Origin: a virus
Lineage: Duplodnaviria; Caudoviricetes
DNA: 64,000 nt
IMG/VR virus record: IMGVR_UViG_3300014208_000024
Span: 308,284-372,283 of that record
Reading direction: 5' to 3' (one strand)
Positions 9,224 to 41,498 of the stretch are shown here, in pieces (within the stretch, counting starts at the first letter, position 1; every line of letters begins with the position of its first letter). The notes beneath the pieces were generated by a model. That model had not been told where the DNA came from, made no database searches, and was given only the letters and a program-made list of their open reading frames with translations. The translations under genes and the position numbers were made by a program.

Positions 9224-9367
9224 GGGAAAGGGGGCAACCCCTTTTTTTATTTTCTTTTTTTTAATTTCTGTTTTGTAGTAAACCAATAGACAAAAATACA
9301 AAAAGGTCAATTCCCACTTTTTCAGAAAATTTGCTTTATATACTCACCAACCAACCAAACCAAAAAT

Positions 9368-9673
9368 ATGAAAACAATCGTAACGCCTTTCGAGCAGGCA
9401 CAGGAAGCTGTCCGCAATGGAAAACTGACAACCCCAACAGTTGTTGCAGAGGGAAAACAAATCGATTATTTCGGTTATCAGATCAGTGTTCACAGGTTTA
9501 ATCTGAGAATAATGGCAGGGGATATGAAATTCAGGGGCGTCAAATTAAGAGATTTAAAGAATTATTACGGTCTGACAGGTCGCAGTGCAAGTGAATGCCT
9601 TGCACAGTTTGAAAATGTAGTAGCGGACTATCGCAGGCGGTTCAATCTACTGCAATCAGTAAACAAAAATTAA
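9368..9673 (+). CDS. Hypothetical protein
   Basis: ORF behind class-A promoter; ends at terminator. Confidence 0.75.
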   Translation: MKTIVTPFEQAQEAVRNGKLTTPTVVAEGKQIDYFGYQISVHRFNLRIMAGDMKFRGVKLRDLKNYYGLTGRSASECLAQFENVVADYRRRFNLLQSVNKN

Positions 9674-9965
9674 AAGGTGTGAAAGCCGAAAAAAGGGGGT
9701 GTGAAAGCCCTCTTTTATTTTTTTTTTAATTTTTTAAATTTCGGTATTGTCGTAAACCAACAAGCCAAACATCCAAAAATGGCAATTCCCACTTTTCCAG
9801 AAAATTTGCTTTATATAGTCACGTTCTTTCGGTAGTTAAAAAAAGCGATCACAGGGAAACAAAAAATTCCCACTTTTTCAGAAAATTCGCTTTATATACT
9901 CACAAGCTCTTTGACATACTGAAATCAGAAAAAATAAAGTTACCAAACCATAAAAAACAAAAATT

Positions 9966-10523
9966 ATGAAAGCTACTACATTATTACAGTTAATCGAAAG
10001 TTTCGATTTTTCAGGTGTGTCCTTTATTTCGATAAAAGGATATTGTTCAGACGAAAGTGAAAACAGCGAAATCGCTGATGTTGTTGTGAATGTTGGTGCG
10101 TCTTATGGAAATATGAAAGATGCCGATTTGATTACCCTTCAGGGTGCAGATGTTTCAAAACTTGCTTCAGACAATTTTGGTTTTGCAATTCTTGAACAGG
10201 CTGTAAAAGAAAAAATTCAGTCAATTATTGCACCAAACGAAAACCGTTCAAACGGTCAAAAAGATGCCTACATCAACCTTAACCCCAAAGGTACTCTGAA
10301 ATATTGCAAATCTACGGGCAGTGTTTTGATACAGGGTACGGTTGTTCGTAAAACTGTGATTAAAGAGGGTATTTTCAAAACAACAAATTCACGCCCTTTA
10401 ACCCTTGCAAAAAAACATATTGACAAGGTTCTTGATCTGAAAGTCGCAAAAATGCGATATTACAAAATTGCAAATATCACACGAAATGTAAAAGTTTCAG
10501 GTGATTGTATCGAAATCGAATAA
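9966..10523 (+). CDS. Hypothetical protein
   Basis: ORF behind class-A promoter; ends at terminator. Confidence 0.8.
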   Translation: MKATTLLQLIESFDFSGVSFISIKGYCSDESENSEIADVVVNVGASYGNMKDADLITLQGADVSKLASDNFGFAILEQAVKEKIQSIIAPNENRSNGQKDAYINLNPKGTLKYCKSTGSVLIQGTVVRKTVIKEGIFKTTNSRPLTLAKKHIDKVLDLKVAKMRYYKIANITRNVKVSGDCIEIE

Positions 10524-10863
10524 CGAAAGAAAACGATCAGGGAGAGGGGGGCAGGTTGCCCCTCTTTTTTTTTCTTTTTTTTTAAAAACCTTTCCCTGAT
10601 ATGGTGGTTTACGAGCAAACCGAAATTTAAAAAAAAGTTTTTAAAAACTTTCCCTGACATAAACTTTCCCTTGCGTTTCCCTGTATATAGAAAACGTTCC
10701 CTTTAAAACGGTTTTTAGGCTATTTTACAGGCTTTTTTTTATTACTGAATGATATTTGATATGTTTCCCCGATCAAAACGCTTTAAAATGCTTTAAAATG
10801 TTTCCCCAAAAACGTTCCCTCTTTTTCAATTTATTTGCTTTATATATTTTAAATAATTTAATT

Positions 10864-11517
10864 ATGAAATTAGATTTTTCAGGTCGCATAAATACTGATT
10901 ATACAAAGGTTTCCCTTACTCGCTCTTTTAAATATAAGGGCGGTTTTATTTCACCTAAGAGATTAAAAAACGGCAATGAAAAATTACATCATTGTTTTGT
11001 TTTCGATTTACCTGCTGTATTAAGTTGTCCTAATTGTAAAGGTTGCAAAGATAGTTGCTACGCTTTACAGGCACAAATGCAATATCCCGATGTAAGAGTT
11101 TTCAGGCATACAAATTTACATCTTGCTGTTTTTAATATAAGCAAGTTAAAAGAGTTAATTTGTTCACAATTGCAGACATCACGAACAAACATTGTTCGCA
11201 TACATGGTAGCGGTGATTTTTTCAGTCAACAGTATGTGGATATGTGGCTCGAAATAATTAAAATGTTTCCTGATAAAAAGTTTTACGCTTATACAAAAGC
11301 TGAGAAATTATTTACCTTTAAAAAATTATCAAACTTTAACCTTATTACATCGTTTATAGGGGGCAAATTGAATTACGGTGACATTGATTATTGCAACAGT
11401 TTAAAAGATCGTTATAACGCTTTTATTTGCCCTTGCGGAATTGATAAAACTGTTAAATGTGGAATTGATTGTAATTATTGTATAACGAATAAAAAGGTTT
11501 GTTTTTTGAAACATTAA
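10864..11517 (+). CDS. GP88-like (radical-SAM-related) phage protein
   Basis: FDLPAVLSCPxCxxCxxSCYA, RIHGSGDF and FYAYTK motifs typical of the phage GP88 family; likely start MKLDF. Confidence 0.7.
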   Translation: MKLDFSGRINTDYTKVSLTRSFKYKGGFISPKRLKNGNEKLHHCFVFDLPAVLSCPNCKGCKDSCYALQAQMQYPDVRVFRHTNLHLAVFNISKLKELICSQLQTSRTNIVRIHGSGDFFSQQYVDMWLEIIKMFPDKKFYAYTKAEKLFTFKKLSNFNLITSFIGGKLNYGDIDYCNSLKDRYNAFICPCGIDKTVKCGIDCNYCITNKKVCFLKH

Positions 11518-11797
11518 ACCTTTCTCACTTTCCCAGAAAATTTGCTTTATATATCCATGAGAAAATAAATAAACAAACCAAAAAGGAATTTAAAATGCGA
11601 AAGTAAGTTTGTCTTTTCCTCTTAGTAATATTAAAATAGTAACTCGCACTCACAAGGTGCGGGAAAAACGTTTTTTATTTTGTTTTTTTAAATTTCTGTT
11701 TTGTCGTAAACCAATTACAAAAAACTCCATAACTCTTTTTCCCTCTTTTTCATTTTATTTGCTTTATATATTCACAAACCAATTAAAACCAAAAGCT

Positions 11798-12034
11798 ATG
11801 AGTTTAACAATTCACATACAGGCAAAGTCCAAAAAAGAGATCAATGAAAAATTGGCTCAGGGTAAAAAAGTTTACGGAGAAAGTTATTCATTATTTGGCG
11901 GTGGTGGTACGTATGAATTGAACAAAGATTTGCCCACAGGTACGGTAATTAAAATCTTTGAGAAATATGTATCGGGCAACCCGTTTGTAAAATCTTATGG
12001 TACGTGGGCTGCGAGTAAAAACAAGGTGATATAA
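11798..12034 (+). CDS. Hypothetical protein
   Basis: Start MSLTI behind class-A promoter. Confidence 0.75.
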   Translation: MSLTIHIQAKSKKEINEKLAQGKKVYGESYSLFGGGGTYELNKDLPTGTVIKIFEKYVSGNPFVKSYGTWAASKNKVI

Positions 12035-12096
12035 AAATTCCCACTTTCCCAGAAAATTTGCTTTATATCTTTATAAACCAATTAAAACTGACAATC

Positions 12097-12381
12097 ATGA
12101 AAAGATCAATAGGTTTCAAAAGGAGTGAGGAAAGAGAAATTGAAGTTTCAAACAATTCTTTACCTGCCACAAATGAAGATCGTCCCAGTGAAATTTCCGT
12201 ACCAATGAGTTCTGCTCAGGTTGATCTACTTGAAACGATTCAAAACCTGTCTGAAATAATTGTGGACAAAAGTTTTGCAAAGTTTGCAGAAAACCAAAGA
12301 GTTTTATTTATTAAACAGCTTATCAATGCAGTTTCATTAAATTCTGAACTGACAACAAAAACAGCTATGCTGATGGTTTAA
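12097..12381 (+). CDS. Hypothetical protein
   Basis: Start MKRSI behind class-A promoter. Confidence 0.7.
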   Translation: MKRSIGFKRSEEREIEVSNNSLPATNEDRPSEISVPMSSAQVDLLETIQNLSEIIVDKSFAKFAENQRVLFIKQLINAVSLNSELTTKTAMLMV

Positions 12382-12875
12382 TCCCACTTTTTGAAATAAT
12401 TTGCTTTATACAGACATAAGAAATTGCCCGAAACAAATAATACTACAAATCATGAATAGAATAAGAGAACCCGATGTAAGTAAAAAAATTTATTTAGAAT
12501 TTATAAAACAATCCGTTGATCAAAAACTTTCGTAAAAAAGCAAAAAGGTATGCCGAGAATAAGATGCCCGAATAGGATAAAAACCCACTGAAAATTAACA
12601 AGAGTATTAACCCTAAATGAAAAATAGTATGATAAGAGCCTCTCCGAAATAAGCACATCTAATAATCTATAATATATAATAATCCGATTAAAACCCCTAC
12701 CCGTTTATATTTGGGCGGGGGTTTCTTTTTTTTATTTCTTTTTTTTAAATTTCTGTTTTGTCGTAAACCCTCCCTTTGAAACTTTCCCCAACCTTTCCCT
12801 GTTTTCCCCAGAGTTTTCCCACTTTTTCTTTTTATTTGCTTTATATACTTGTCAAACCAATTAAAACCAAAGATC

Positions 12876-13067
12876 ATGTCAAAAACAAAAAAATTCCACA
12901 AGCCGTCAAAAAGTGAAGTTGACGAAATGTATCTGAAAGCAAACCGCAAAGGTAGCAGACAGGCAGAACTTGAAAACGCCACAGGTTTTACCTCAAATCA
13001 CAAAGCACACAAAAGTAAAAAAGATTACAACAGAAAACCAAAGCACAAAGGAAGTTGGGATTGTTAA
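12876..13067 (+). CDS. Small basic protein
   Basis: Start MSKTKK behind class-A promoter; HKSKKDYNRKPKHK motif. Confidence 0.7.
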   Translation: MSKTKKFHKPSKSEVDEMYLKANRKGSRQAELENATGFTSNHKAHKSKKDYNRKPKHKGSWDC

Positions 13068-13122
13068 TCCCACTTTTATTTTTTATTTGCTTTATATAAT
13101 CACAAACCAAAAACAAAAACCA

Positions 13123-13455
13123 ATGAAAAGCATATTTGTAAAATTCGGGAACATGAGAGGTGAAGCGCAAGATTTTACCCTGTATCCGTACAATGGTGGT
13201 GATACGATTGTAATTCAATCAGACAAAAGAATTGCACAGATCAATCTGAAAACAGGTGAAACGATACTGAGCAAACAGGTTCAGGGCGGGGCTTATTTCA
13301 TGCACTTAAACGCATTTTTAGGGGCAACAGTTTGCCAATTTCCAAAAGATGAACTGATAAAAATTCAGGAATATTTGTGGAACAATGCAGGTGAAAAAAT
13401 TCATGGAGGTATTTTGATCACAGAAGACAAACCACTATTTTCAGTAAAATTATAA
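13123..13455 (+). CDS. Hypothetical protein
   Basis: Start MKSIF behind class-A promoter. Confidence 0.75.
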   Translation: MKSIFVKFGNMRGEAQDFTLYPYNGGDTIVIQSDKRIAQINLKTGETILSKQVQGGAYFMHLNAFLGATVCQFPKDELIKIQEYLWNNAGEKIHGGILITEDKPLFSVKL

Positions 13456-13524
13456 AAGAGGGGGCTTTCCCTCTTTTCCAGATAATTTGCTTTATATATT
13501 TACAAACCAATTAAAACCAAAAAG

Positions 13525-13881
13525 ATGAAAAAATCATTAGCATTATTAGCAAAAGGGTTTGAAAGCTCATGTTCAACCACACCCGAATTTGCCCAGTTTT
13601 TTCGCACCTTTAAAAGCGAATTTACAAAAGAACTTCAAAGCATTGGGGCAACCAAAATCGAAATGAACAGGGGTCATTTTTACCTGTCAGGTTTTTTTAC
13701 AAAAGGTGAAAAGATTTTCTATTTTTCTCTTTCCGATGTAAGAGGTTCAGACTTTGTTTTGGGCAGTGGTGGTGATCTTGATCTACTTTACAGAACTGCA
13801 AAACACTACAAAGATTGGTCAGGGGGTACAAATTGTTATGTAATAATCGAGGCGGGAATGGCTCAAAAAATGAGGTTATAA
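13525..13881 (+). CDS. Hypothetical protein
   Basis: ORF behind class-A promoter. Confidence 0.75.
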   Translation: MKKSLALLAKGFESSCSTTPEFAQFFRTFKSEFTKELQSIGATKIEMNRGHFYLSGFFTKGEKIFYFSLSDVRGSDFVLGSGGDLDLLYRTAKHYKDWSGGTNCYVIIEAGMAQKMRL

Positions 13882-13949
13882 AAAAGAGGGAACTTTCCCT
13901 CTTTTCTTTTTTATTTGCTTTATATATTTATAAACCAAAACTAATTTTT

Positions 13950-14174
13950 ATGAAAACAAATATTTTAAAATACAGTTTATACCTCATTTTTGTTTTAGCT
14001 TTAATTTCTAAAGTTGACGGTTGGGGTGCAATTCTTTCAGCAGTAAAAGAGTTTTCGTCTTTTGTTTTATTTATGGCAGTTATCATCGCCTTTGTTGTTT
14101 TGCTTTATATAATGTTCAACAAATCAAAATCTCTCAAACGTTTTGTTGACGACAAAGATAATGAACTGAAATGA
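13950..14174 (+). CDS. Small membrane protein
   Basis: Two hydrophobic segments; class-A promoter. Confidence 0.7.
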   Translation: MKTNILKYSLYLIFVLALISKVDGWGAILSAVKEFSSFVLFMAVIIAFVVLLYIMFNKSKSLKRFVDDKDNELK

Positions 14175-14238
14175 TCGTTTCCCACTTTTCAAAGAAATTT
14201 GCTTTATATAATCACAAACCAATTAAAAACCAAAAATC

Positions 14239-14583
14239 ATGAAAAAAGCAAACATAGTATTTAATGACCAGAGAATACCATCGGAATATCTGAACACAAT
14301 TCTCGTTGAAAATGTTAAAGATCTCATAAGCGCCCACAATTTTGTATTTGGATCTACATTCAGCGATTTTGCAAAAAAAGCATTAACAGGACTTAAAAAA
14401 ACAAGCGATATAACATTCAGGATTGAAAGTTTAATAAGGAATGAAAATCTTGCCCCTCAAACAAAAATCTGCTTTATAAATCAATTAAAAGCTGTCCTTT
14501 CGGGTAATTTTATCAGAATGAATAATGCAGGGGGTTACTTTGATTTTGACCCTAACAAAGCAACAATAACGAAATTAAAATAG
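14239..14583 (+). CDS. Hypothetical protein
   Basis: ORF behind class-A promoter; followed by terminator. Confidence 0.75.
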   Translation: MKKANIVFNDQRIPSEYLNTILVENVKDLISAHNFVFGSTFSDFAKKALTGLKKTSDITFRIESLIRNENLAPQTKICFINQLKAVLSGNFIRMNNAGGYFDFDPNKATITKLK

Positions 14584-14772
14584 GTTTTTTCATAGTTTAA
14601 TTGTTTAAATTGGTTTGAAGGGGGGCTGGTTACCTCCCTTTTTTTTATTTTCTTTTTTTAAATTTCGGTTTGGTCGTAAACCATACCTTTTTGATTTTTC
14701 ACCTGTGACTTCCCATGTTCCACTTTCTCAAATAATTTGCTTTATATACTCATAGCAAAAAACCATAAACAA

Positions 14773-15009
14773 ATGAAAACAATAGATAAAATTATAACCA
14801 AAGTAGATTGCAAATTCGGAGCGCCAATGGGAAGATATAATATAGGCAACAAGCCAACAAACAAAAGAGTTTTTGATTGTGCAGTCCCAATGAGTTGTGA
14901 CGGTGCTTATGATAAAGGTGGGGCATATTTTGGGATTGGAAAACAATTAAGAGTTGAGTACACAAAAGATTTATCTTATGTGAAATTTTACAGGAGGGGA
15001 GAAAAATAA
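14773..15009 (+). CDS. Hypothetical protein (GAPMGR family)
   Basis: CKFGAPMGR...YDKGGAYFG motif; class-A promoter. Confidence 0.75.
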   Translation: MKTIDKIITKVDCKFGAPMGRYNIGNKPTNKRVFDCAVPMSCDGAYDKGGAYFGIGKQLRVEYTKDLSYVKFYRRGEK

Positions 15010-15064
15010 TTCCCACTTTTCAAAGAAATTTGCTTTATATACTCATAACCAAAAACCAAAACCA

Positions 15065-15256
15065 ATGACAAAAGAAAAAACTTATACAGGTGCTTATAAA
15101 GTAGTTCAAATTTTCAGAGTTTCTAAAAGGCGTAAAACTTTAAAGCGTGGTTTAACAAAAGAAGAAGCAATGAGGGTTGTTAACAGATACCCCAACAGTT
15201 CTCGGAGTATGGTTGTATTTATGAAGCAATTTAGTGCTGATAAATATTTTGTTTAA
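15065..15256 (+). CDS. Hypothetical protein
   Basis: ORF behind class-A promoter. Confidence 0.7.
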   Translation: MTKEKTYTGAYKVVQIFRVSKRRKTLKRGLTKEEAMRVVNRYPNSSRSMVVFMKQFSADKYFV

Positions 15257-15281
15257 CGGTTGTATAATAAAAAACAATTAA

Positions 15282-15668
15282 ATGAGATTCATTCTAAGAC
15301 CATTTTGCATATTGATAGTAAAGTTTTTACAAAGAAGGTATAAACAAATAACTATTAAAAACAGGCACAATCAGACAAATCAGGTTTTATCAAAATTAAA
15401 ACTGATACAATCAATTTTATATTATTTTAAAAGTCAATTTCATGCTTGGGGTTATTTTCACCCCGATTGTGGATGGAGCGAAAAAGATGAATTTAAGTTT
15501 AGGAAACTGTTTCCTACAAAAGATTTTGAAGAGCTTGATTTAGTTGTTTTGCACAATCCTAATGCGATAACTTATTATCAGAATAGGATATATGACCTAA
15601 CAAACGGAAAGAGCGTTAAATCCAGCGATATTGAGAAACAGTTAAGAAAGTGGAATGATTGGAATTAA
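15282..15668 (+). CDS. Hypothetical protein
   Basis: ORF co-transcribed with previous gene. Confidence 0.65.
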   Translation: MRFILRPFCILIVKFLQRRYKQITIKNRHNQTNQVLSKLKLIQSILYYFKSQFHAWGYFHPDCGWSEKDEFKFRKLFPTKDFEELDLVVLHNPNAITYYQNRIYDLTNGKSVKSSDIEKQLRKWNDWN

Positions 15669-15720
15669 TCCCACTTTCTACAATAATTTGCTTTATATCC
15701 ACAACCAAAACCTTAAAATT

Positions 15721-15942
15721 ATGACTGAATTACAATTTATTCTTTTAGAAATTATTATTTTAATAATTATTTATCTTGGGTGTTTCTGTTTAATTTTTAA
15801 GTCAATGGTTTTTAATACAGCAGAAGAAGAAATTAAAAACATGAAAATAAGCAATATAGTTGCTTTGATAGTAGTTTCAATCTGTGTTATTTGTATTTAC
15901 ATAAATTATCCGACATTCCCAATTTCCCACTTTCCCCAATAA
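15721..15942 (+). CDS. Small membrane protein
   Basis: Two TM-like segments; class-A promoter. Confidence 0.7.
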   Translation: MTELQFILLEIIILIIIYLGCFCLIFKSMVFNTAEEEIKNMKISNIVALIVVSICVICIYINYPTFPISHFPQ

Positions 15943-15978
15943 TTTGCTTTATATATTCATAACCAAAAATCAAAAGTC

Positions 15979-16197
15979 ATGATAGAATATCGCAAAAGAT
16001 ACAGTGAATCAACCACACGTTCAACTTCACCCATAACAAAAAAGGGTCAGGCAATAACTGTTCGCAAAGGAAAAAAGAAATTTAAAGTTATAATCACGCA
16101 CCCGAATTATGCTGGAAGCAATATAACTGAGGGGGATGCAAACGGAAAACATTATGTATGTTGGTTCAATTATGGTTCATGGTCTGTATCTAATTAA
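15979..16197 (+). CDS. Hypothetical protein
   Basis: ORF behind class-A promoter. Confidence 0.7.
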   Translation: MIEYRKRYSESTTRSTSPITKKGQAITVRKGKKKFKVIITHPNYAGSNITEGDANGKHYVCWFNYGSWSVSN

Positions 16198-16251
16198 TTC
16201 CCACTTTTTATTTTAATTTGCTTTATATATCCATAACCAAAAATAAAAGCC

Positions 16252-16488
16252 ATGCAATTAACTAAAGAAGAAAAAACAAATATATTCTGGTCGTTGCTTA
16301 AAGAATATCCCGAATTTGAAAGGAGCCGTAAACAAATGCCTTTAATTTTTAAAGGAGAAGAAAAAATATCAAAAATGATTAAAATCATTAATGATGGAGA
16401 AAAAAAAGCTTATGATTTGATCAAAAAGTTTGCTGATGAAATTGGAGAAAATATACCCGAATACAAGAATCCAAATTTGAGGGGGTAA
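16252..16488 (+). CDS. Hypothetical protein
   Basis: ORF behind class-A promoter. Confidence 0.7.
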   Translation: MQLTKEEKTNIFWSLLKEYPEFERSRKQMPLIFKGEEKISKMIKIINDGEKKAYDLIKKFADEIGENIPEYKNPNLRG

Positions 16489-16548
16489 TAATATTCCCAC
16501 TTTCCCAGGAAATTTGCTTTATATATCCATAACCAAAAAATAAAAGCC

Positions 16549-16974
16549 ATGCCAAAATTTGAATTAAGATCAAACCAGTACATTCCTTATCGTGGAAAAA
16601 GATTACAAAGTGGGATGCCTGCCAGTGCTACATACTTTTATTTCGTAAATGAAAACGGAAAAGTTGTGGACTTACAAACATTAAAACCATATAAGGGAAA
16701 ACAAATGAATCGTTATGCAATGCACGATAAAAAAGAGGCAAATTCTTTTCTTAAATTGATTAATAAAACTACAACTCACAAAGTTGAAAAGCCAAAGGGT
16801 ACTTTTTATTCTGATTATACCATAAAAGGTGATTGCTGTTATGCAATATTTGAAAACTGTGATGGAAGGGTTAATACAAAATTAGTTTGCAAAACAAAAA
16901 AAACGAATGACGATTGGAAAACTTTTAATATAAAGGAAACAAAAAGGAATTTATTTATAAATCTGGGAGAATAA
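16549..16974 (+). CDS. Hypothetical protein
   Basis: ORF behind class-A promoter. Confidence 0.7.
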   Translation: MPKFELRSNQYIPYRGKRLQSGMPASATYFYFVNENGKVVDLQTLKPYKGKQMNRYAMHDKKEANSFLKLINKTTTHKVEKPKGTFYSDYTIKGDCCYAIFENCDGRVNTKLVCKTKKTNDDWKTFNIKETKRNLFINLGE

Positions 16975-17027
16975 ACTCTCCCACTTTTCTTTTTTATTTG
17001 CTTTATATATTCACAAACCGCAAAGCT

Positions 17028-17405
17028 ATGTATAAAGTTTACAGATATGAAAGCCCTTATGATCAAACGGGGGTTTTTAATTGTAGCCTTTCAAAATTTC
17101 CTGATAAATACAAAGTTTCAAAATTGTGTGATAAAATTCATGGAGATCATATCGGAAATAAAGATCACCCCACTTTACAAACTGACGGGTTAGATTTTGC
17201 ACTTGAAATGACTGGGTTTTTATGTGCTTGTAATAGCATAAAAGAATTATTGAATTGGTTTGATAAATACAATAAAAAACTTATTAAAAGCGGTTTTGTA
17301 ATTGCTGAATATATTGTAATTGCAAAGTTTGACGGCAAATCTGGATTGCAATGTGTTTTCAATGAAAAGGCAATAATTGAAAGAAATGTTATTTCCACTT
17401 TTTAA
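17028..17405 (+). CDS. Hypothetical protein
   Basis: Start MYKVYRYE behind class-A promoter. Confidence 0.7.
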   Translation: MYKVYRYESPYDQTGVFNCSLSKFPDKYKVSKLCDKIHGDHIGNKDHPTLQTDGLDFALEMTGFLCACNSIKELLNWFDKYNKKLIKSGFVIAEYIVIAKFDGKSGLQCVFNEKAIIERNVISTF

Positions 17406-18844: not shown

Positions 18845-19300
18845 ATGGGACACGATATATCCGCTTTTAAAATAGAATCAAAAAACGATGACAATATTGG
18901 TTTTCGTGAAGGAGAAGAAATTTCTTATGCTTGTTTTTCCGCTGGGAACATTGTGGGTCAATATCTTTTTTATGAAAGCCTAAATGCCCAAAAATTTAAC
19001 GCTGGGTGCAGTGGTGGTGGTGGTCGGGATGTTTATACTATTGACCAAATAAAAACCGCCAAATCAAAGCTAAACTACATTTCCTCAGATGATAATGTGA
19101 GTGCAGAAATTAAAAGGTATTCATTTGATGAAAAACACAATATTTTTAAAAATCTTATTGATAGGCTTAATGGCAACCCCGAAAGTGCTTTATTAAAAGG
19201 AGATGCTGAAAGAATTAAACATGAAATTAAAAAGATCAATCAGTTTTATGATAATATTTTAAACAGCGGAGAGGAAACAATTATGATAGGGTTTTATTGA
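18845..19300 (+). CDS. Hypothetical protein
   Basis: ORF behind class-A promoter. Confidence 0.75.
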   Translation: MGHDISAFKIESKNDDNIGFREGEEISYACFSAGNIVGQYLFYESLNAQKFNAGCSGGGGRDVYTIDQIKTAKSKLNYISSDDNVSAEIKRYSFDEKHNIFKNLIDRLNGNPESALLKGDAERIKHEIKKINQFYDNILNSGEETIMIGFY

Positions 19301-19408
19301 AAACCCTTTTTTATTTTCTTTTTTTAAATTTCTGTTTTGTCGTAAACCCATATACAAAATTCCCCCACAAGACAACTTCCCACTTTTTCAAATAATTTGC
19401 TTTATATA

Positions 19409-21394: not shown

Positions 21395-21467
21395 ATGAAA
21401 AGGGGGAACTTTCCCTCTTTTTTGTTTTATTTGCTTTATATACTCACTAACCAAAAAAAATAAAAAA

Positions 21468-22709: not shown

Positions 22710-22878
22710 TTTTTGGTTTGGTGAAGCAAGTGAAGGGAGGAAAGTGGTTCCTCCTTTTTTATTTTCTTTTTTTTAAATTTCTGTTTTGTCGTAAACCTCC
22801 CTATGTAAACTTTCCCTGGCAGGATTCCCACTTTCCAAAATAATTTGCTTTATATAGTTATAACCAAAAAATAAAGAA

Positions 22879-23415: not shown

Positions 23416-23485
23416 AAGAAAAGTGGGAACTCTCCCACTTTTTTATTATATTTGCTTTATATAGTCATAACCAATAATTAAGACA

Positions 23486-26374: not shown

Positions 26375-26492
26375 ATTTTCTTTTTTTAAATTTCGGTTTG
26401 GTCGTAAACCCCATATCCACAATTCTGGTCCAGACAATTCCCACTTTTTCATTTAATTTGCTTTATATAGTCACAAACAAAAAATAATTTAT

Positions 26493-27515: not shown

Positions 27516-27629
27516 ATAAAAGGGGGGTTCTCTCCCTCTTTTTCTTTTTATTTGCTTTATATAGTTATAAATAGTAAAAAATTTCATGTATTACGAAATA
27601 ATTTATAAACCACTAAAAAACAAATAGTT

Positions 27630-32330: not shown

Positions 32331-32338
32331 TTTAAAAA

Positions 32339-33587: not shown

Positions 33588-33644
33588 CAAATCCCACTTT
33601 TTCAAATAATTTGCTTTATATAGTCATAACAAACAAAAAATCAA

Positions 33645-33830
33645 ATGGAAAAAGAACTTGGAATTGGCGTTGTAACAGATAAAGGGACTGTCATGGATAT
33701 TGATGTAAGTTATAAGCCTAAAATTAAAGGCCAAACAATTTATTATGTTACAAAAACTCCTGAAAAATATGCAAAAGGAGTAAATTGTGGAATATGGAAG
33801 TTGAAAGAAGAACTTGTTTTACTTCAATAA
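33645..33830 (+). CDS. Hypothetical protein
   Basis: ORF behind class-A promoter. Confidence 0.65.
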   Translation: MEKELGIGVVTDKGTVMDIDVSYKPKIKGQTIYYVTKTPEKYAKGVNCGIWKLKEELVLLQ

Positions 33831-33924
33831 TAAATCCCACTTTTTCAGAAAATTCGCTTTATATACTTGTTAATGTAAAAAAAAATAAATAACTTTGCTA
33901 ATTATTAACTAAATTTTTTTAAAA

Positions 33925-34737
33925 ATGGGATACAATAGTGAGTTCAAAGGGGGCTTCCTCCTTAACAAAGCATTGGACGATGTAACGTTCAATTTCTTAA
34001 ATAAATTGGCCAACACTCGCAGAATGGCCAGAAAAGTAGATGCCAAATATGGTGTCCAAGGTGAATTTTATGTTGACGGCACAGGAGATTCTGGCCAAGG
34101 ACGTGAACCAAATGTTATTGATTTTAACGTAGCTCCAAGAACACAGCCAGGTTTATGGTGCCAGTGGGTTCCTACAGAAGATCGCAGAGGCATTGAGTGG
34201 GACGGTGGAGAAAAATTTTATGCCTATATTCAGTGGATTGAATATATTATTTCCAAAGTTCTTGCCCCCAGAGGATATGTTCTCAACGGTAATGTAAAAT
34301 GGAGAGGTGAAGATTTTGATGACACTGGTGTTATTGAAATCCATGACAACATGGTTCAGGGAAAACGTTTGATTGTGGATTATTCAATCAACAAACTTTT
34401 GGGGGCTGTTGGCGCTTCTACTGGTGTAAAAAATTCCACTCCATCTGTTTCTACCAATAACAAACGCAAAGCTGGTGTAAGACCTGATGGAACAAAAACA
34501 AAACATCAGATTTACAAAGAGAAGCAAGAAGCTGCAAAAAAACTTCTTGAAGATCAGATTGCAAAATTAGAAGCTGATCTGAAAGCTGCAGATGAGGAGC
34601 TGAAAAAGAAAAAAGTAGCAATTACAAAGAAGCTGACCGTAAATGATGTTGTTCTGGATCAGATCAGGAAAAAAGCTGAATTTGGAAGTACACTGGAAGA
34701 TTTCAAAAAAACACTGAGGAATTTACTGGAAGATTAA
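33925..34737 (+). CDS. Hypothetical protein with C-terminal coiled coil
   Basis: PGLWCQWVP...WDGGEKFY motif; class-A promoter. Confidence 0.8.
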   Translation: MGYNSEFKGGFLLNKALDDVTFNFLNKLANTRRMARKVDAKYGVQGEFYVDGTGDSGQGREPNVIDFNVAPRTQPGLWCQWVPTEDRRGIEWDGGEKFYAYIQWIEYIISKVLAPRGYVLNGNVKWRGEDFDDTGVIEIHDNMVQGKRLIVDYSINKLLGAVGASTGVKNSTPSVSTNNKRKAGVRPDGTKTKHQIYKEKQEAAKKLLEDQIAKLEADLKAADEELKKKKVAITKKLTVNDVVLDQIRKKAEFGSTLEDFKKTLRNLLED

Positions 34738-34798
34738 ATTCCCACTTTTTTAAATAATTTGCTTTATATAGTTGTTAGATAAATTAAAACTTAAGAAA

Positions 34799-35425
34799 AT
34801 GAAAGACGTAAAAGAGATGAGTAAGAGTGCAATAGCCGATTTGGAATTGGTTAACGCCATCAAAAGTGAAGACAAAAGAAAATCAGAAAAGGCTTTTTCT
34901 CTGCTGTTTAAAAAATACCATGATACTATGCTGTTTCACTTCAGGGGATTGGTAAAAGATGAAGAAGATGCAAAAGAAATTGTTCTCGAAGCTTTTGTAA
35001 AAGTAAGTTCAAACATTGAAAAATTCAATCAGGATTCCGCTGTGTTCAGCACATGGTTATTCAGACTTACACAGAATCTTTTCATCGATAAACTGAGAAA
35101 GAAAAAAGATGATGTTGTTTCTCTTAGCGACATGGCTACATATGACGAAGATAGCCATACTTTCGAGTTCGACTTTGAAGATTGTGATGGAACTCCTGAA
35201 TCTAAAATACTGGATTCAGAAAAAGAAAGAAGAGTAAATGAAGTTCTTTCAAAAATGGAAAATCAGGAACTTGCCGAAATGATAAAAATGAGATATTTCC
35301 AAGGTCTGTCATACGAAGAAATCTCTAATGTTACGGGTAAACCTTTGGGAACTATAAAAGCTTTTATCTTCAGAGCAAAACAATTTCTGAAAAAAGACCT
35401 TAAAAGAGCTAAATTAAATTTTTAA
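34799..35425 (+). CDS. ECF (sigma-70 group 4) RNA polymerase sigma factor
   Basis: Region 2 AFSLLFKKY...DAKEIVLEAF...FSTWLFRL..N..ID..RK; region 4 MRYFQGLSYEEIS..TGKPLGTIKAFIFRAK. Confidence 0.9.
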   Translation: MKDVKEMSKSAIADLELVNAIKSEDKRKSEKAFSLLFKKYHDTMLFHFRGLVKDEEDAKEIVLEAFVKVSSNIEKFNQDSAVFSTWLFRLTQNLFIDKLRKKKDDVVSLSDMATYDEDSHTFEFDFEDCDGTPESKILDSEKERRVNEVLSKMENQELAEMIKMRYFQGLSYEEISNVTGKPLGTIKAFIFRAKQFLKKDLKRAKLNF

Positions 35426-35493
35426 AATTCTACTTGATAATTTTTAAAGAAATCCTTATATTTACTTATAAGGATTTTTTTTTATTTATTATT

Positions 35494-36000
35494 ATGGTAC
35501 CACAACAAGCAGGCCGTCCCCTCACTCCAGCAGAAAAGAAACAATATCTTTTGGCCAAATACACAAAGAGAGACTACAATGTAGGTGATTTAGAAAGTTG
35601 TAAAAAATATGCAGTATATTTTTGTCCAAATTTGGAACTTGTAAAAGAATGGAAATTATTACATGTATGTGGGAATCTGAATGAAGCAAAACAACAGATT
35701 TTTTGGAGAAAACAATACATGAGTACAAAGGATGGGGATTTAATTATAGATAATTGTGAAGATTTTAAGACATGGAGAGATGAAACAAAAAATGTTGACT
35801 CTAACGGGAATGCTTATGAGCCAGGAGAAGAATTAATGAAAATTGATTATAATGCTCCAGGAAATATGATTCAGGTAATAGCAAGTTCGACTCCAGCTCA
35901 ACAAAATTCTAATGGATTCAAAGGATTTGGGTTTTATACAGGAATTGAGATTGGAAATTATCAAGGTTTTTATAAAATTGAGGAAATTTACGAAGTATAG
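35494..36000 (+). CDS. Hypothetical protein (TATTTAT promoter)
   Basis: Likely start MVPQQ behind TATTTATT. Confidence 0.7.
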   Translation: MVPQQAGRPLTPAEKKQYLLAKYTKRDYNVGDLESCKKYAVYFCPNLELVKEWKLLHVCGNLNEAKQQIFWRKQYMSTKDGDLIIDNCEDFKTWRDETKNVDSNGNAYEPGEELMKIDYNAPGNMIQVIASSTPAQQNSNGFKGFGFYTGIEIGNYQGFYKIEEIYEV

Positions 36001-36057
36001 TAAAATAAACTCCCACTTTTTCAAATAATTTGCTTTATATAGTCAAAAGTTATTAAT

Positions 36058-36519
36058 ATGAAAAAAATTATTGAAGCTACGTATCATTTATTGTTCTTTA
36101 AAACTTATACCCACTTTTCAAGGTGGTTTGAAATTAGTAGCGGCATACTTGTTTGGTTAAATATTGCATTATTAGTTTGTATAATGAGTGGATGTGTAAA
36201 AGAAGGCCCCAGTGGATATGCAGAAATTTCAAGTGTTGAAGAACAGGAAAAATATGAAGTCAGTCATGATTCAACTTGGTCCAATGCTGATTCTATTGAA
36301 TATGGTTTACTTCCAGTTTGGTATAAAGTAAAAAATACTGGCTTCGGAGAAATACATAAATATTCCATAACATTCGCTGTACTTCTTACAAATGGAAACT
36401 ATATATACACTGAATCTTTTGGTACTGGAGTTAGAGATTATTCAACATCTTTAATATACATAGAAACCAACGGGCAAGAAGCGCAAGATGTTTTAATAAC
36501 CAATCTTCAAGTTGAATAA
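36058..36519 (+). CDS. Putative lipoprotein/membrane protein
   Basis: Hydrophobic segment ending MSGC; class-A promoter. Confidence 0.6.
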   Translation: MKKIIEATYHLLFFKTYTHFSRWFEISSGILVWLNIALLVCIMSGCVKEGPSGYAEISSVEEQEKYEVSHDSTWSNADSIEYGLLPVWYKVKNTGFGEIHKYSITFAVLLTNGNYIYTESFGTGVRDYSTSLIYIETNGQEAQDVLITNLQVE

Positions 36520-36579
36520 TTTGTTTTATCAACAAAATAATTACTTGGTTTTAACTTTTTTGTACTATTTATAAATAAA

Positions 36580-37518
36580 ATGGATACAAAAGAATTTATA
36601 GAAAAATCGAAAAAAATTCATGGGGATAAATATGATTATTCAAAAAGCATATATGTAAAGTCAAAGATAAAATTGACAATCATTTGTCCAATTCATGGAG
36701 AATTTTTTATGGCACCACAATCGCATTTGTATGGAAAAAACGGATGTCAAAAATGTGCAAAAATAAAAGGTCTACAAAATTTAATTAATAATTCAAATAA
36801 AAAAAGAATAACATTTGAATCATTTTTAGAAAGAGCAAAAAATATTCATAACAACAAATATGAATATGAAAAAATTGAAATTAAAAATTTTTATCAAAAA
36901 GTTCGAATTAAATGCCCTGTTCATGGATGGTTTATTCAATCTGTAGCTGATCATTTAAGAAAGCATGGATGTATTGAATGTCACAGACCAAATAGAGGAA
37001 GCTCTCAACGATTGCTGTTAGGAGAATTTATAGAAAAAGCAAATAATATTCATAATAATATATATGATTATTCAAAGGTAGTTTACACTAATAATCATAC
37101 AAAAATAATAATAGGGTGTAAAACCCATGGAGATTTTCAACAAACACCTGCATCTCATTTAAAATCTAATGGATGTCCAATTTGCAAAAGTTCTAAAGGA
37201 GAAATAAAAATAAAAGAATTTTTAGAAAAAAGAAACATTTTGTTTAAACAACAAAAAACATTTTCTGGATGTAAAAATAAACAACTTTTGCAATTTGATT
37301 TTTATCTTCCTGATTTAAATTCTTGTATTGAATATGATGGAATGCAACATTTTAAAGCAATAGAATATTTTGGAGGGGAAAAAGGTTTAATTGAAACTAA
37401 AAAGCGTGATATTATAAAAAATGAATATTGTAAACAAAACAATATTTCTTTATTAAGAATAAAGTACAATGAAAAAATAGAAAATAAAATTACTTCTTTT
37501 TTAAAAACTTTTTTTTAA
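36580..37518 (+). CDS. DUF723-repeat homing-endonuclease-like protein with C-terminal PD-(D/E)XK domain
   Basis: Three KxIHGxKYDYSK...I.CP.HG.F...HL...GC..C repeats; FDFYLPDLNSCIEYDGMQH. Confidence 0.85.
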   Translation: MDTKEFIEKSKKIHGDKYDYSKSIYVKSKIKLTIICPIHGEFFMAPQSHLYGKNGCQKCAKIKGLQNLINNSNKKRITFESFLERAKNIHNNKYEYEKIEIKNFYQKVRIKCPVHGWFIQSVADHLRKHGCIECHRPNRGSSQRLLLGEFIEKANNIHNNIYDYSKVVYTNNHTKIIIGCKTHGDFQQTPASHLKSNGCPICKSSKGEIKIKEFLEKRNILFKQQKTFSGCKNKQLLQFDFYLPDLNSCIEYDGMQHFKAIEYFGGEKGLIETKKRDIIKNEYCKQNNISLLRIKYNEKIENKITSFLKTFF

Positions 37519-37635
37519 ATTTCGGTTTGCTCGTAAACCCCACAGTAAATCCACAAATCCAAAACTCCCACTTTTTCAAATAATTTGCTTTATATACTCA
37601 CATAAACTAAATATTAACAATTTAAATTTAAAAAA

Positions 37636-38475
37636 ATGGTACGTGAATTAAGTGAAAAAATAGGCTGGGAAATTGAAAGTAAAAATATTTTCTCAGGAGA
37701 TCAAATAGGTCTCGAAAAAATTTTAGGGTACAAAGCTGTTACTCGTAATGATAACGGAGGAGTTCTCTCAGTTATGAAAAAATCTTATTCCCCCATGACC
37801 AACACAGAGTTTTTAGAAGTGGTTTCAAAAATTCAAGAAATATCTGGATTTAAACTTGCAGGGTTTAATGAATTCAGACAAGGGAGGAAAGTTTTGGGGT
37901 TCCTTGAAAATGATAAAGAGGATTTATATATTGGAGGACATAAAATAAAAGATTATTTTTTAGTTGGAAACAGCTTTGATGGATCTACATCTTTCTTCCA
38001 AGGTACATCGACAATTCTAATCCGCTGTCAAAATCAGTTCAGCCAAATTAATGTAATGAACAAAATCCGCCATACGAAAAGTATAGGAAGAAAACTTGAA
38101 GAATTTTATTCCTACTTAGATTTTTATTTCAACAAAAGAAATGAATTATATAAAACTTTCGAGCAACTTGGAAATATTACCCTCACAGAAAATTTACGTG
38201 AAAATCTTATTAAAGCTGCCCTTGGAGTTAAAGAAGTTACTGACAAAGAAATATCAGCTCGTAAACAAAATCAAATCGACCTGCTGAGATCAACAATACT
38301 CGCAGAAACTTTGGAACTGGGCGAAAATATGTGGGGGGCATTTAATGGAGTTACAAAATATACAACCCACGAAATCGAAACAAAAAACCCCATCTTCGGA
38401 AATGTCTTCGGAAATCAGGCCGATATCAATAACAGAGCAATGGAATTTGCAACCAAAGAACTGGTAATGTCATAA
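37636..38475 (+). CDS. DUF932/DUF945-family protein
   Basis: KAVTRNDNG..LSV..KSY.P..N, NSFDGS, IRCQNQF, IRHT and NMWGAFNGVTKYTTH motifs. Confidence 0.8.
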   Translation: MVRELSEKIGWEIESKNIFSGDQIGLEKILGYKAVTRNDNGGVLSVMKKSYSPMTNTEFLEVVSKIQEISGFKLAGFNEFRQGRKVLGFLENDKEDLYIGGHKIKDYFLVGNSFDGSTSFFQGTSTILIRCQNQFSQINVMNKIRHTKSIGRKLEEFYSYLDFYFNKRNELYKTFEQLGNITLTENLRENLIKAALGVKEVTDKEISARKQNQIDLLRSTILAETLELGENMWGAFNGVTKYTTHEIETKNPIFGNVFGNQADINNRAMEFATKELVMS

Positions 38476-38538
38476 AGAAACTGGGGGAGGAAACTCTCCC
38501 CCACATTTTTTAAATGTTTAACTTAATAATTTATAATC

Positions 38539-38967
38539 ATGCATAAATCATTTGTAATTTTACTTTCGATTTTATTTAGCTTTATTATATTTGTAGACAT
38601 AGGAACTATTGCATCTATCGCATATAGAGATAATCAAAGAATCAATCAAGAAATAACTGTAAACAAAGACAGTTTCGAAGATCAATATCCCAGACTTGGA
38701 CCATTTATTACCATTGAAGATTTTATACATGTAGATAGTATTTATAAAGCAGAAATGGACAGGATAAATAAATTAAAAAACAAACCTTTTAAAATGATTA
38801 CAAAATGTAAATTTATTCCCGAAGTTGAATTTGTTGATTATGGAACATTCAAAGAAATAGATAGTCTTAAATGTATTCGACAAAAAGAAATGGAAAATCT
38901 TATCAAGCAAGAGAAAGAACAAGAAAAAGAACTTGATCTATTAAATAATAAACCCTGTAATAATTAA
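38539..38967 (+). CDS. Membrane-anchored hypothetical protein
   Basis: N-terminal TM helix. Confidence 0.65.
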   Translation: MHKSFVILLSILFSFIIFVDIGTIASIAYRDNQRINQEITVNKDSFEDQYPRLGPFITIEDFIHVDSIYKAEMDRINKLKNKPFKMITKCKFIPEVEFVDYGTFKEIDSLKCIRQKEMENLIKQEKEQEKELDLLNNKPCNN

Positions 38968-39049
38968 AAAGCCAAAGGGGGAGGAAACTCTCCCCATTTT
39001 TTTCTCTTTTTTTTTGCATATTTAATGGAAATTCAAAACACCATTATCT

Positions 39050-39286
39050 ATGAAACCAAAAGAAACATTTAAGGAAATGCTCACTCTTTGCTATGAAGAA
39101 GATTTCCCAGAATTACACAAAGAATTAATTTCACTTGAAAGTGAAACAAAAAAGATCAGAGACTCGTATAAGTATGAAAAAGCAATGGAGGAAATATTTA
39201 ATCTTATACCCCTATTTTCTGAAGACTTTCCCCAGGAAATAATGTTGCAACTGGAAAAACTATATGAAGATTGTATAGAAGAATAA
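39050..39286 (+). CDS. Hypothetical acidic protein
   Basis: ORF after terminator. Confidence 0.65.
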   Translation: MKPKETFKEMLTLCYEEDFPELHKELISLESETKKIRDSYKYEKAMEEIFNLIPLFSEDFPQEIMLQLEKLYEDCIEE

Positions 39287-39301
39287 CTTAATTTAAATAA
39301 A

Positions 39302-39904
39302 ATGAAAAAAATCTCTGGAGACGTTATCGCTCACCTCCTGTTTGGAGTGGCTGCAATTGGTTTATTAATCGGTGGAGCTATTATGCTAATAGCATCTTTC
39401 TTTACAGCTCTCCCTATATTTAATGCTTTTATCGTATTAACACTGGGAGCTATCCTATATGTGGGAGTTAGACTTTATTTTGTATTCGGCGATGTACTGG
39501 AATCTATAACTAAATTAATAGAAATTTCTTCCTCTCCCCAGATAAATAAGAACGGTAGAATATATAAAAATGGATTGTTAACAAAACAAATGGGATTTGG
39601 AGACCTGCCAACTCATGATCTATCAAAAATTCCACATCCTGCACCAGGATTAATTGATGAAATTCTTATTGATGAAAATACAACCCCAGAGGAAATTGAA
39701 AATATTAAAAAGAAATATCCTGGGTTCTCTCATGCAATTGATGAAATACTGGAAAAGGTTGGGGGGATTTCACGTACATCTACTTTACCCCTATCTTCTC
39801 TCTCTTCTTTTAAATTAGAAAAACTTCTTCAGGAAGCTATTGATAAAAATGATTTTGAAAGAGCTGCTGAAATAAGAGACGAAATTAATAGAAGGAATAA
39901 GTAA
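39302..39904 (+). CDS. Membrane protein with C-terminal UVR (UvrB/UvrC) motif
   Basis: Two N-terminal TM helices; LEKLLQEAIDKNDFERAAEIRDEI. Confidence 0.7.
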   Translation: MKKISGDVIAHLLFGVAAIGLLIGGAIMLIASFFTALPIFNAFIVLTLGAILYVGVRLYFVFGDVLESITKLIEISSSPQINKNGRIYKNGLLTKQMGFGDLPTHDLSKIPHPAPGLIDEILIDENTTPEEIENIKKKYPGFSHAIDEILEKVGGISRTSTLPLSSLSSFKLEKLLQEAIDKNDFERAAEIRDEINRRNK

Positions 39905-40071
39905 CCTTTTAAAAATTAATCCGTATAAGATAGTAAGAGTAATTTATATAACAAGTTGTATCTACTAATCGCATGATTAAAACCCCACACCCAAAATTTG
40001 CTGGGGTTTTTTTATTCCCACTTTTTAAAATAATTTGCTTTATATAGTTATTGTTAAAAAAAACTAAAGCT

Positions 40072-40242
40072 ATGTTTGAAAAACTAATCTGGAAACTGTT
40101 TAAAATGAACAGGAATGATTTCAATAAGGCAGATAAGAAAATTGAAAAGATACTGCTTGAAGTTTATGAAAAAGGTAAAAAGGATGGCAAAAAAGAAATG
40201 TCAAAATTAATGTCGATATTAGTTAAAAAAACAATATTATGA
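40072..40242 (+). CDS. Small hypothetical protein
   Basis: Start MFEKL behind class-A promoter. Confidence 0.65.
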   Translation: MFEKLIWKLFKMNRNDFNKADKKIEKILLEVYEKGKKDGKKEMSKLMSILVKKTIL

Positions 40243-40628
40243 AATTAGAAATTAAGCAATACAAATATGAAAAAATAGAGGTGTCATCAAAAGAAATTGA
40301 ATTGCCAACTGAAACCTCTTACTTTTTTCAAACTGGAATAAGACGTTCAATAAAAATAACTCCACGTTTTACAACTTGGAATAAAAAACACTATAATAAA
40401 GAAGAAGAGTTATATGAACTTATAGTTGTTTGTTTATACCAAAATTTTGAATGTAAAGCAGAAAAGTTCAGCTTAAGAGTTAATGAATTAGAAAATATTT
40501 ATTATTCTGAAAAAGACGAAAATAAAGAATTTGTAACTGCATTGATTGATGGTTGTTTTAATAAAAGAACTAAAGAACAATTTGATGCTGATTTTAAACA
40601 CATATTTTCAGAAATGCAGTGTCTTTAA
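40239..40628 (+). CDS. Hypothetical protein
   Basis: ATGA overlap with previous gene. Confidence 0.7.
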   Translation: MKLEIKQYKYEKIEVSSKEIELPTETSYFFQTGIRRSIKITPRFTTWNKKHYNKEEELYELIVVCLYQNFECKAEKFSLRVNELENIYYSEKDENKEFVTALIDGCFNKRTKEQFDADFKHIFSEMQCL

Positions 40629-40629
40629 A

Positions 40630-41160
40630 ATGAAAAAATTTCTCCTGTTCATATTCAATTTATTCAATAAGAAATCTCTGGAGCCCCCAAAACCAGAACT
40701 CATCGTCATTAGCAAAAAATCAAATAGCGGAAGTACAATACAAAACCATTTTGTCTATACAGCTGCAAACCCCAGTATTAAATCTCTGGCCGCTTCTGTG
40801 CTTCTTAAAAATGATCTTATGTTTCAAGATGTAGACTACCTGGAAGATGAACTTCATAAATGGCTCGAATTTCGTGAAAGATATCTATATAAACAACTGA
40901 TATTAAAAAAAGGTCTGATATGTACCTATTGTGGAAAACCCCACCTGGAAATCGGAGGTAGAACCCCCAAAGATATTATCGCTAATAACAAAAACCCAAA
41001 CCTGGCAACTATAGACCATATTACAGCGCTCGCTAATGGGGGATCAAAGTATGATGAAGATAATCTATGCGTTAGCTGTAAAAAATGCAACAGAAACAAA
41101 GGAACAACCCCAGTGGAAGAATTTAAAAGAAAATTAAATTTTAAAAATTTTAATCAATAG
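40630..41160 (+). CDS. HNH endonuclease
   Basis: CTYCG...TIDHITALANGG....DNLCVSCKKCNRNKG. Confidence 0.85.
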   Translation: MKKFLLFIFNLFNKKSLEPPKPELIVISKKSNSGSTIQNHFVYTAANPSIKSLAASVLLKNDLMFQDVDYLEDELHKWLEFRERYLYKQLILKKGLICTYCGKPHLEIGGRTPKDIIANNKNPNLATIDHITALANGGSKYDEDNLCVSCKKCNRNKGTTPVEEFKRKLNFKNFNQ

Positions 41161-41498
41161 TTGTAACCTTTTTTAATTTTTCTCGTATTAATAGGTAACT
41201 TGGATAACTTGGACGCCCGTCCTTAAACTATTCAAGTCTTTGTATTCTTTGTCTGTTTTATTTTTTAGAAACCCCTGAGCTTGTCCCTCTGGGGTTTCAG
41301 TTTTTTAAAAACTTTTTTTTAAATTTCGGTTCCGTCGTAAACCCCCACAAACAATCTCTTTTTCTATTTTTTATTTTTCTTTTTTTAAATTTCGGTTTGC
41401 TCGTAAACCCCCATAGTAAAACCCCCAATCTAAAATTCCCACTTTTTTAAAAAATTTGCTTTATATAACTTTTGCCTTTTTTCTGCGTATAAACCATT

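Follow-up and report, generated by a model that had tools for sequence, protein, structure and literature searches.

For huge uncultured phages, hardly anything beyond the encoded proteins is known, and the way in which their genes are regulated has so far gone unread. Here, we describe a conserved DNA element, which we call B, in the last 64 kb (positions 308,284 to 372,283; hereafter, the window, whose numbering is used below) of the 372,283-bp IMG/VR virus record IMGVR_UViG_3300014208_000024, an uncultured phage from groundwater. The window has a G+C content of about 30% and contains an array of small genes, nearly all of which are preceded by their own copy of a two-box promoter, TCCCACTTTT-N6-AATTTGCTTTATATA, designated class A. 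About 58 co-oriented copies of this promoter lie between positions 8746 and 41467, and a genome-wide scan found the motif to be restricted to 317-350 kb of the genome, that is, to a 33-kb array. The leaders of the array genes are A/C-rich and possess no Shine-Dalgarno sequence.

At least four promoter classes can be read from the sequence of this genome, and B adds a fifth cis-element. The second class, found outside the array, has the form TTTG...TAtaTTTG and is of the Bacteroidota primary-sigma type; the third, also outside the array, is (A/C)TATTTATA; and the (A/C)TATTTATA and TTTG..TATATTTG classes serve the remaining genome. The fourth is a typical extracytoplasmic function (ECF) promoter, TG(A/T)AAC-N16-TCGTATA, with about 23 sites genome-wide. 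An ECF sigma gene is located inside the array at 34772-35425 under a class-A promoter, which, together with the ECF-type sites, reads as an early-to-middle cascade. One ECF-type promoter (AAC at 41467, N16, CGTA at 41486) adjoins the last array gene, at 41499-41774, which is apparently served by two classes. The genome has two further sigma-like open reading frames (ORFs), and Pfam and PHROGs searches detected neither a T7-like nor a multisubunit RNA polymerase in it; with several sigma-like factors present and no phage RNA polymerase detected, the host RNA polymerase is most likely redirected via several factors. HNH and GIY-YIG nucleases are encoded within the array and adjoining it. An Rfam search of positions 8000-43000 at the gathering score returned two tRNAs only, with no family match at B.

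B has the asymmetric consensus T7-WRW-TTTC-K-GTT-NNN-TCGTA-W-ACC, in which a run of seven Ts (T7 run) is followed by a 23-mer, giving 30 bases in all (Table 1). The 23-mer consensus, with up to three mismatches allowed, matched the window 12 times against 0.00 expected from 100 shuffles. Eleven of these matches are the forward copies listed in the initial annotation of this DNA, all of which were recovered, and the twelfth, at 10606-10628, is intact but reversed. When all 372 kb of the genome were scanned with a weight matrix, only the same 12 copies were picked out, with scores of 31-41; a degenerate 13th copy, just beyond the last array gene at 41852-41874, scored 17.5, and the next match 12.5. 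All 13 copies are inside or at the edge of the class-A array and none is found elsewhere in the genome, so the earlier statement that the copies keep to the array now holds genome-wide. The copy ending at 41343, first noted as a tandem duplicate, is indeed one, being the upstream member of a pair with 41387-41409. The length first given for the element was too short, since the invariant T7 run also belongs to it.

Relatives of this phage were reached via a metagenome scan for B (L039) and via homologues of a 185-aa protein encoded in the array, and were examined as stretches of 8-20 kb. L039 has two B copies, each located after a terminator and 26-28 nt before a diverged class-A promoter, and further copies were found in L053 (two), L054 (six), L055 (five), L060 (four, one of them reversed), and L062 (five), of which L063 is a near-identical strain. 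Wider searches added little to this set. Exact-pattern scans of viral contigs for B and for the class-A promoter gave no match, and a looser B pattern found one record, G001, with the same two copies as L039. Among the 27 matches in the metagenome scan, only L039 was a relative, the others being chance matches inside genes; a scan of cellular genome contigs gave 26 single chance matches in coding DNA, with no sign of a host regulon and no prophage. The array had no megablast match in the phage collection, the terminase search yielded only short relatives without the array, a related-locus search with the 185-aa protein gave no match, and a literature search for the motif strings returned unrelated vector sequences only. 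To our knowledge, neither the B motif, nor this phage group, nor the partner promoter class has been described earlier.

Seven phage lineages, which share no more than 60-70% identity between orthologous proteins, yielded 35 distinct copies that could be aligned without gaps, and 17 positions of this alignment are invariant or nearly so. Invariant or near-invariant bases are found in the T-run (-6 to 0) and at T4-T6, C7, G9, T10, T11, T15, C16, G17, T18, A19, A21, C22, and C23; positions 1-3, 8, 12-14, and 20 are variable. Information drops to background right after C23 and upstream of the T-run, both flanks being unconserved. The conserved part, therefore, consists of two blocks, TTTC-n-GTT and TCGTA-n-ACC, plus the T7 run. 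The centres of the blocks are 10.5 bp apart, which places both on the same side of the helix, and we propose that the T7 run provides a narrow minor groove or a bend. Judged from the alignment, this pattern of invariant and free positions fits base-specific protein contacts in two major grooves and not homology left by recent copying.

The initial annotation had singled out a dyad, GGTTT-N6-AAACC, as a feature of the element. The full dyad is present in only five window copies (four forward and the reversed one); of its further matches, the one at 10606 is the reversed copy on the opposite strand and the one at 19290 is a terminator stem. Across the 35 copies, the outer pair is intact in seven and each of the two inner pairs is broken in eight, the breaks are never compensated, and the covariation score (0.015) equals the shuffled mean, the other measures likewise being level with shuffled controls. 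Taken pair by pair, the dyad is given as broken in 8-25 of the 35. The dyad is thus a trait of one B subfamily and is not conserved in relatives. Since it is unconserved and shows no covariation, a hairpin or a palindromic recombinase-type site is unsupported, be it an RNA stem-loop, a cruciform, or a recombinase core site.

Besides the sequence, the distance to the promoter is constrained. Counted between AAACC and the T that opens the TCCCAC box, the gaps in the window are 27, 28, 27, 47, 35, 29, 28, 28, 26, and 27 nt, which reproduces the earlier values within 1 nt of counting convention. Measured from C23 to the first base of the TATA-like box in the 29 copies that permit it, the spacing is 52-57 nt in 20 cases (69%), 61-66 nt in five, and 71-75 nt in four; no B spacing falls at 58-60 or 67-70 nt. 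The distance is, therefore, not fixed as had been claimed: the mode is joined by shifts of about +10 or +20, and a few copies are some 130-210 nt away. In a V-type Monte-Carlo test, the spacings outside the mode appear to be in helical phase with it (p = 0.017 for a 10-bp and 0.039 for a 10.5-bp period, from nine informative spacings among partly dependent copies). Orthologous junctions differ in spacing (73 vs 53 nt at one, and 55, 56, 63, and 75 nt before the gene of the GP88 family), which points to separate indel events. Inserted TTTCCC-box units were considered as the cause of the longer spacings and rejected, as only some of the long gaps carry extra boxes.

The relation to the upstream terminator is of another kind. 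A terminator, consisting of a G+C-rich hairpin and a T-run, directly precedes 9 of the 11 forward copies in the window, in line with the earlier remark that copies usually follow one, and 28 of all 35 (80%); seven copies have none, including the one at 37517, three of those in L060, and the downstream partners in tandem pairs. Where a hairpin is present, its distance to B varies freely between 8 and 27 nt, and the T-run of B often doubles as the terminator T-tract. With the promoter distance constrained and the hairpin distance free, B is geometrically tied to the promoter and not to the terminator. The gap between B and promoter had been called unconserved, and its sequence does diverge across lineages. 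In this genome, however, the gaps are rich in C (29%) and poor in G (8%), and several of them open alike (CCATA...), suggesting that the modules derive from a common ancestor; the G-poor composition is absent from relatives.

Nearly every forward B is followed by a class-A-type promoter, and there is no gene for which B stands in place of one. Only the upstream tandem members, one copy cut off by a contig end, and the degenerate copy at the array end depart from this rule. Thirty-three of the 35 copies are co-oriented with the promoter, and as one would expect of an upstream site, B ends 52-75 nt before the TATA-like box in the measured cases and in a fixed orientation. Gene context is in part conserved as well, in that B stands in front of the 185-aa gene in four lineages and in front of a GP88-family gene in four; the copy at 12740 is the positional ortholog of a B at 4102 of the L039 reverse complement.

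The dependence runs in one direction only. In each of four relatives (L048, L049, L056, and L091), about 5-10 kb of array contains class-A-type promoters but no B. These promoters, thus, do not require B, which is an accessory of a subclade. An example is the junction at window position 11690, where the orthologous L048 junction retains hairpin and promoter and only the B module of about 65 nt is gone. The GP88 junction in L056 likewise has no B, and gene order is shuffled between relatives. Within the window itself, about half of the terminator-to-promoter junctions have no B, so that B leaves some blocks of the array unmarked. At such B-less junctions, the 3' arm of the hairpin is itself the C-box of the promoter, or the box stands directly after the T-run. 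Fused terminator-promoters were seen at 13882-13926, 21397-21442, 23417-23463, and 27518-27563, where a long hairpin (AAAAGAGGGAA..TTCCCTCTTTT) has a 3' arm that, with the T-run, makes the class-A upstream box.

Tentatively, we read B as an asymmetric two-block site for a putative DNA-binding protein, which would act on the adjacent promoter from about -66 to -95; judged from sequence and geometry, we would put this a little short of an even chance. It covers the two-block, one-turn anatomy, the free internal positions, the sharp edges, the orientation, the spacing, and the dependence on class A. The initial annotation had already proposed a protein site in register with the promoter; six further lineages and the modal, stepwise spacing leave this as the best reading, without the strictly fixed distance on which it had been built. 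Two other uses mentioned there, a loading site for a virion RNA polymerase and a site for stepwise DNA entry, found no support, and Pfam revealed no phage RNA polymerase.

The putative protein, encoded by either the phage or its host, would bind double-stranded DNA sequence-specifically. If transcription starts some 6-7 nt after the TATATA box, B would cover the interval given above, with its two blocks near -70 and -80. Bound there, the protein might touch the RNA polymerase complex at the class-A promoter and tune it, most likely by activation in the manner of class I activators or of single-protein, two-helix marbox binders. B would then be an optional accessory of a subset of early genes, usually at the first promoter behind a stand-alone terminator, rather than a part of the promoter.

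An element of this kind is already known. Class I activator sites such as those of CRP are centred at -61.5, -72.5, -82.5, or -92.5, and the marbox bound by MarA, SoxS, and Rob is an asymmetric site of 20 bp. Like class I sites, B is located upstream of the -35 region and seems to be spaced in whole helical turns; its asymmetry, its two recognition blocks one turn apart, and its fixed orientation to the promoter recall the marbox. B differs in having no sequence resemblance to these sites, in including the invariant T7 run, in belonging to a phage in which Pfam finds no AraC-type protein, and in accompanying a non-canonical phage promoter class instead of a sigma-70 promoter. The motif is a marker of one subclade and would leave the general principle unchanged. 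Its interest is that it singles out a specific group of early genes, recurs in several lineages, and is coupled in its geometry to the promoter. It could serve as a 30-bp bait for a new phage or host transcription regulator, and as a test case for the staging of early expression.

There are several points that weigh against this reading and should be kept in mind. The phasing signal is modest, given how few spacings inform it and that the copies are not fully independent, and similar gap lengths within one genome may partly stem from a shared origin of the modules. There are also two or three forward copies far from a promoter (L062 1062 and L060 8182, about 130 nt by eye), with other repeats in between. 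The placement relative to transcription depends on a start site deduced from the promoter box. Apart from the ECF sigma factor, Pfam found no helix-turn-helix regulator in the array, and across the genome it found no protein of the AraC or MotA type. B-linked and B-less promoters have equal sequence scores (Mann-Whitney p = 0.54); B-linked promoters, not being weaker by sequence, give no sign of needing help. Finally, the reversed copy is conserved in two lineages with no class-A promoter following it in the direction in which it points. In L060, it follows an orthologous gene and has the flanking CTTTCCCT boxes at matching distances, and an intact, conserved copy of this sort means that B can persist without a promoter in its own orientation.

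The strongest rival, which we consider rather unlikely, is an additional promoter class: B would drive transcription on its own at the head of terminator-delimited blocks, read either by the host polymerase together with a phage factor or by a phage or virion polymerase that has escaped recognition. A whole block would then be transcribed from B at one time and single genes from class-A promoters at another. Most copies head a unit and come immediately after a terminator, which is the usual place of an operon promoter, and a conserved stretch of some 30 contiguous nt, preceded by an AT-rich run and ending sharply on the 3' side, is reminiscent of single-subunit polymerase promoters. No T7-like or multisubunit polymerase was found, although several very large ORFs without a recognisable family leave room for a divergent one. 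As to sigma factors, B contains TCGTA, the -10 motif of the ECF-type promoters of this phage, and it resembles ECF promoters (AAC-N16-CGTA, SigW type) further in the A-rich bases that follow and in the T-rich stretch upstream. However, the T-run stands where the -35 AAC should be, block 1 falls inside the would-be spacer, and no copy has the AAC, 16-17 nt, and CGT(A/C) of an ECF promoter, the genuine ECF-type sites being a distinct set. Nor do the blocks, 10.5 bp apart, agree with the 16-19 bp spacer of the sigma-70 family, and on inspection neither B nor the gap matches the Bacteroidota pattern of TTTG, 19-21 nt, and TAnnTTTG.

The transcript that such a promoter would make has also been considered. 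The gap in this genome is A/C-rich and G-poor, resembling transcribed leaders, but this is not found in the relatives. There, as we read the gaps, about 8 of 19 carry a G-run able to pair with the promoter C-box before its T-run, and RNA started at B could be terminated at such a hairpin once it is about 45 nt long. The reversed copy, which is kept in L060, faces a bidirectional terminator and could yield an RNA of about 65-70 nt. Neither the lack of any gene served by B alone nor the modal, stepwise spacing to class A is explained by an independent promoter.

Less likely again is the far-reaching version in which B would organise the whole array, either as the head-of-block promoter of a machinery unrecognisable by sequence, with about 10 B-driven blocks followed by gene-by-gene expression from class A, or as a polar boundary insulating domains of the 33-kb array.

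A role at the terminator side is, in our view, improbable. B would here be a boundary at which a bound protein acts as a polar roadblock or insulator that reinforces termination, shields the next promoter from read-through, or stalls head-on replication forks. Known polar barriers invite the comparison, namely, the Sal box of Reb1/TTF-I, which follows a T-rich element behind Pol I terminators, and the asymmetric 23-bp site of Tus-Ter. B, too, is asymmetric, about 23 bp in length, and located just after a T-rich termination element, and its copies are co-oriented with transcription across a heavily transcribed region. The large share of copies directly after a hairpin and T-run, and the way in which the T-run of B often is the terminator T-tract, agree with this, and the array-end and reversed copies both stand behind a plus-strand terminator with no promoter in the orientation of B. 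Yet a roadblock should always be found behind a terminator at a set distance, and seven copies have no terminator upstream while in the others the distance to the hairpin is free and that to the promoter constrained. Many terminators have no B, including about half of those at window junctions and all of those in the four related arrays. A homologous binding protein is not known from such bacteria.

Weakest of all, and very improbable, is a recombination module for the duplication, inversion, gain, or loss of cassettes, or the target of a homing-type nuclease: tandem duplications at B in two lineages (window 41321/41387; L054 10612/10699), the inversion containing B in the window and L060, its presence or absence at orthologous junctions, the shuffled gene order, and the HNH and GIY-YIG nucleases in and beside the array would fit, but free positions beside invariant ones and unconserved flanks argue for base-specific recognition and not for the upkeep of homology, the inverted arms around a core seen at tyrosine and serine recombinase sites are not conserved, and rearrangement at repeats is an expected by-product of any repeated regulatory site. 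The closest precedent for such junctions is the promoter-early stem-loop (PeSL) cassettes of T4-type phages, which delimit hyperplastic early-gene regions and for which a role of this sort has been proposed. They share with this array the repeated terminator plus early-promoter modules between small, fast-changing genes and the signs of duplication and reshuffling at junctions. B differs as a third, separately conserved element between terminator and promoter, at some junctions only, and its pattern of invariant and free positions speaks for protein recognition.

Other candidates were discarded. An IHF site, a FliA-type promoter, a sigma-54 promoter, an integron attC core, and a likeness in sequence to Tus-Ter were rejected, and a T7 class II pause signal was rejected because ATCTGTT occurs in two copies only.

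Table 1. Copies of element B, B-linked class-A promoters, and other regulatory features (window coordinates unless a relative is named)
Feature	Position	Strand	Remarks
B copy 1 (T7 + TAATTTCTGTTTTGTAGTAAACC)	9255..9284	+	After terminator ending 9245
B copy 2	9729..9758	+	After terminator ending 9716; precedes 185-aa gene, as in L054, L055, L060
Intact reversed B	10606..10635	-	CTTTCCCT boxes on both flanks; same arrangement in L060
B copy	11683..11712	+	After terminator; orthologous L048 junction without B
B copy	12740..12769	+	Long gap, 73 nt to TATA-like box; extra TTTCCC boxes in gap
B copy	14653..14682	+	Full GGTTT-N6-AAACC dyad; 61 nt to TATA-like box
B copy	19319..19348	+	After terminator; downstream promoter drives ORF-less cassette
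B copy	22768..22797	+	After terminator; CTTTCCCTG box in gap
B copy	26381..26410	+	Full dyad; after terminator
B copy	37510..37539	+	No G+C-rich terminator upstream; stop codon of ORF 36580-37518 at core start
B copy, upstream tandem member	41314..41343	+	After terminator
B copy, downstream tandem member	41380..41409	+	53 nt to TATA-like box of last class-A promoter
Degenerate 13th B	41845..41874	+	G9 to T, C23 to G; array end, no class-A promoter behind
B-linked class-A promoter	9312..9342	+	TCCCACTTTT and AATTTGCTTTATATA boxes
B-linked class-A promoter	9787..9817	+	
B-linked class-A promoter	11740..11770	+	
B-linked class-A promoter, long gap	12817..12847	+	
B-linked class-A promoter	14718..14748	+	
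B-linked class-A promoter	19378..19408	+	
B-linked class-A promoter	22826..22856	+	
B-linked class-A promoter	26439..26469	+	
B-linked class-A promoter	37566..37596	+	
Last B-linked class-A promoter	41437..41467	+	3' end overlapped by ECF-type promoter
ECF-type promoters	30192, 39903, 41165, 52878	+	
ECF-type promoters	47013, 50639, 55523, 56318	-	
GCTTTAAAA tandem repeat	10777-10800; L049 10568-10929; L060 ~2548-2570; L062 ~1170-1195		Four lineages

Several smaller observations concern repeats near B. In the window (10585-10830) and in L060 (2355-2600), five to six plus-strand AACTTTCCCT boxes surround the reversed B and extend up to the promoter of the GP88 gene. AACTTTCCCT is the sequence of the class-A upstream box, and extra copies of it are found in B-to-promoter gaps (12770-12816 and 22798-22825). 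Just upstream of the promoter of the gene that follows the 185-aa gene, which is of the GP88 or the RadC family, lies a tandem direct repeat, GCTTTAAAA(T/C)GCTTTAAAA, which is probably a gene-specific operator.

The edges of the array have features of their own. At its start (8690-8760), a divergent pair of class-A promoters has one hairpin in common (AAAGTGGGAACGTACCACTTT), and the minus-strand member drives a 70-aa gene (8495-8707), which is the sole leftward class-A unit. Just left of the array, the non-coding stretch 8380-8455 holds four iteron-like repeats, (A)GGGGTCTAA/GGGTCTAT, which could be an origin or an operator cluster. At the other end, about 0.8 kb past the array (41880-42700) contains no convincing ORF, and a perfect, parS-like palindrome, TTGTTCCACGTGGAACAA, is located there at 42430-42447, downstream of the degenerate B copy. 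Array edges in two relatives carry palindromes of the form TGTCAGG-N6-CCTGACA (three copies at L060 8205-8320 and two at L048 9200-9260). Lastly, a protein identical to P0001 (9966-10523) is also encoded on a 455,767-base contig in the protein index, so a different assembly of the phage may be longer than the 372-kb record.

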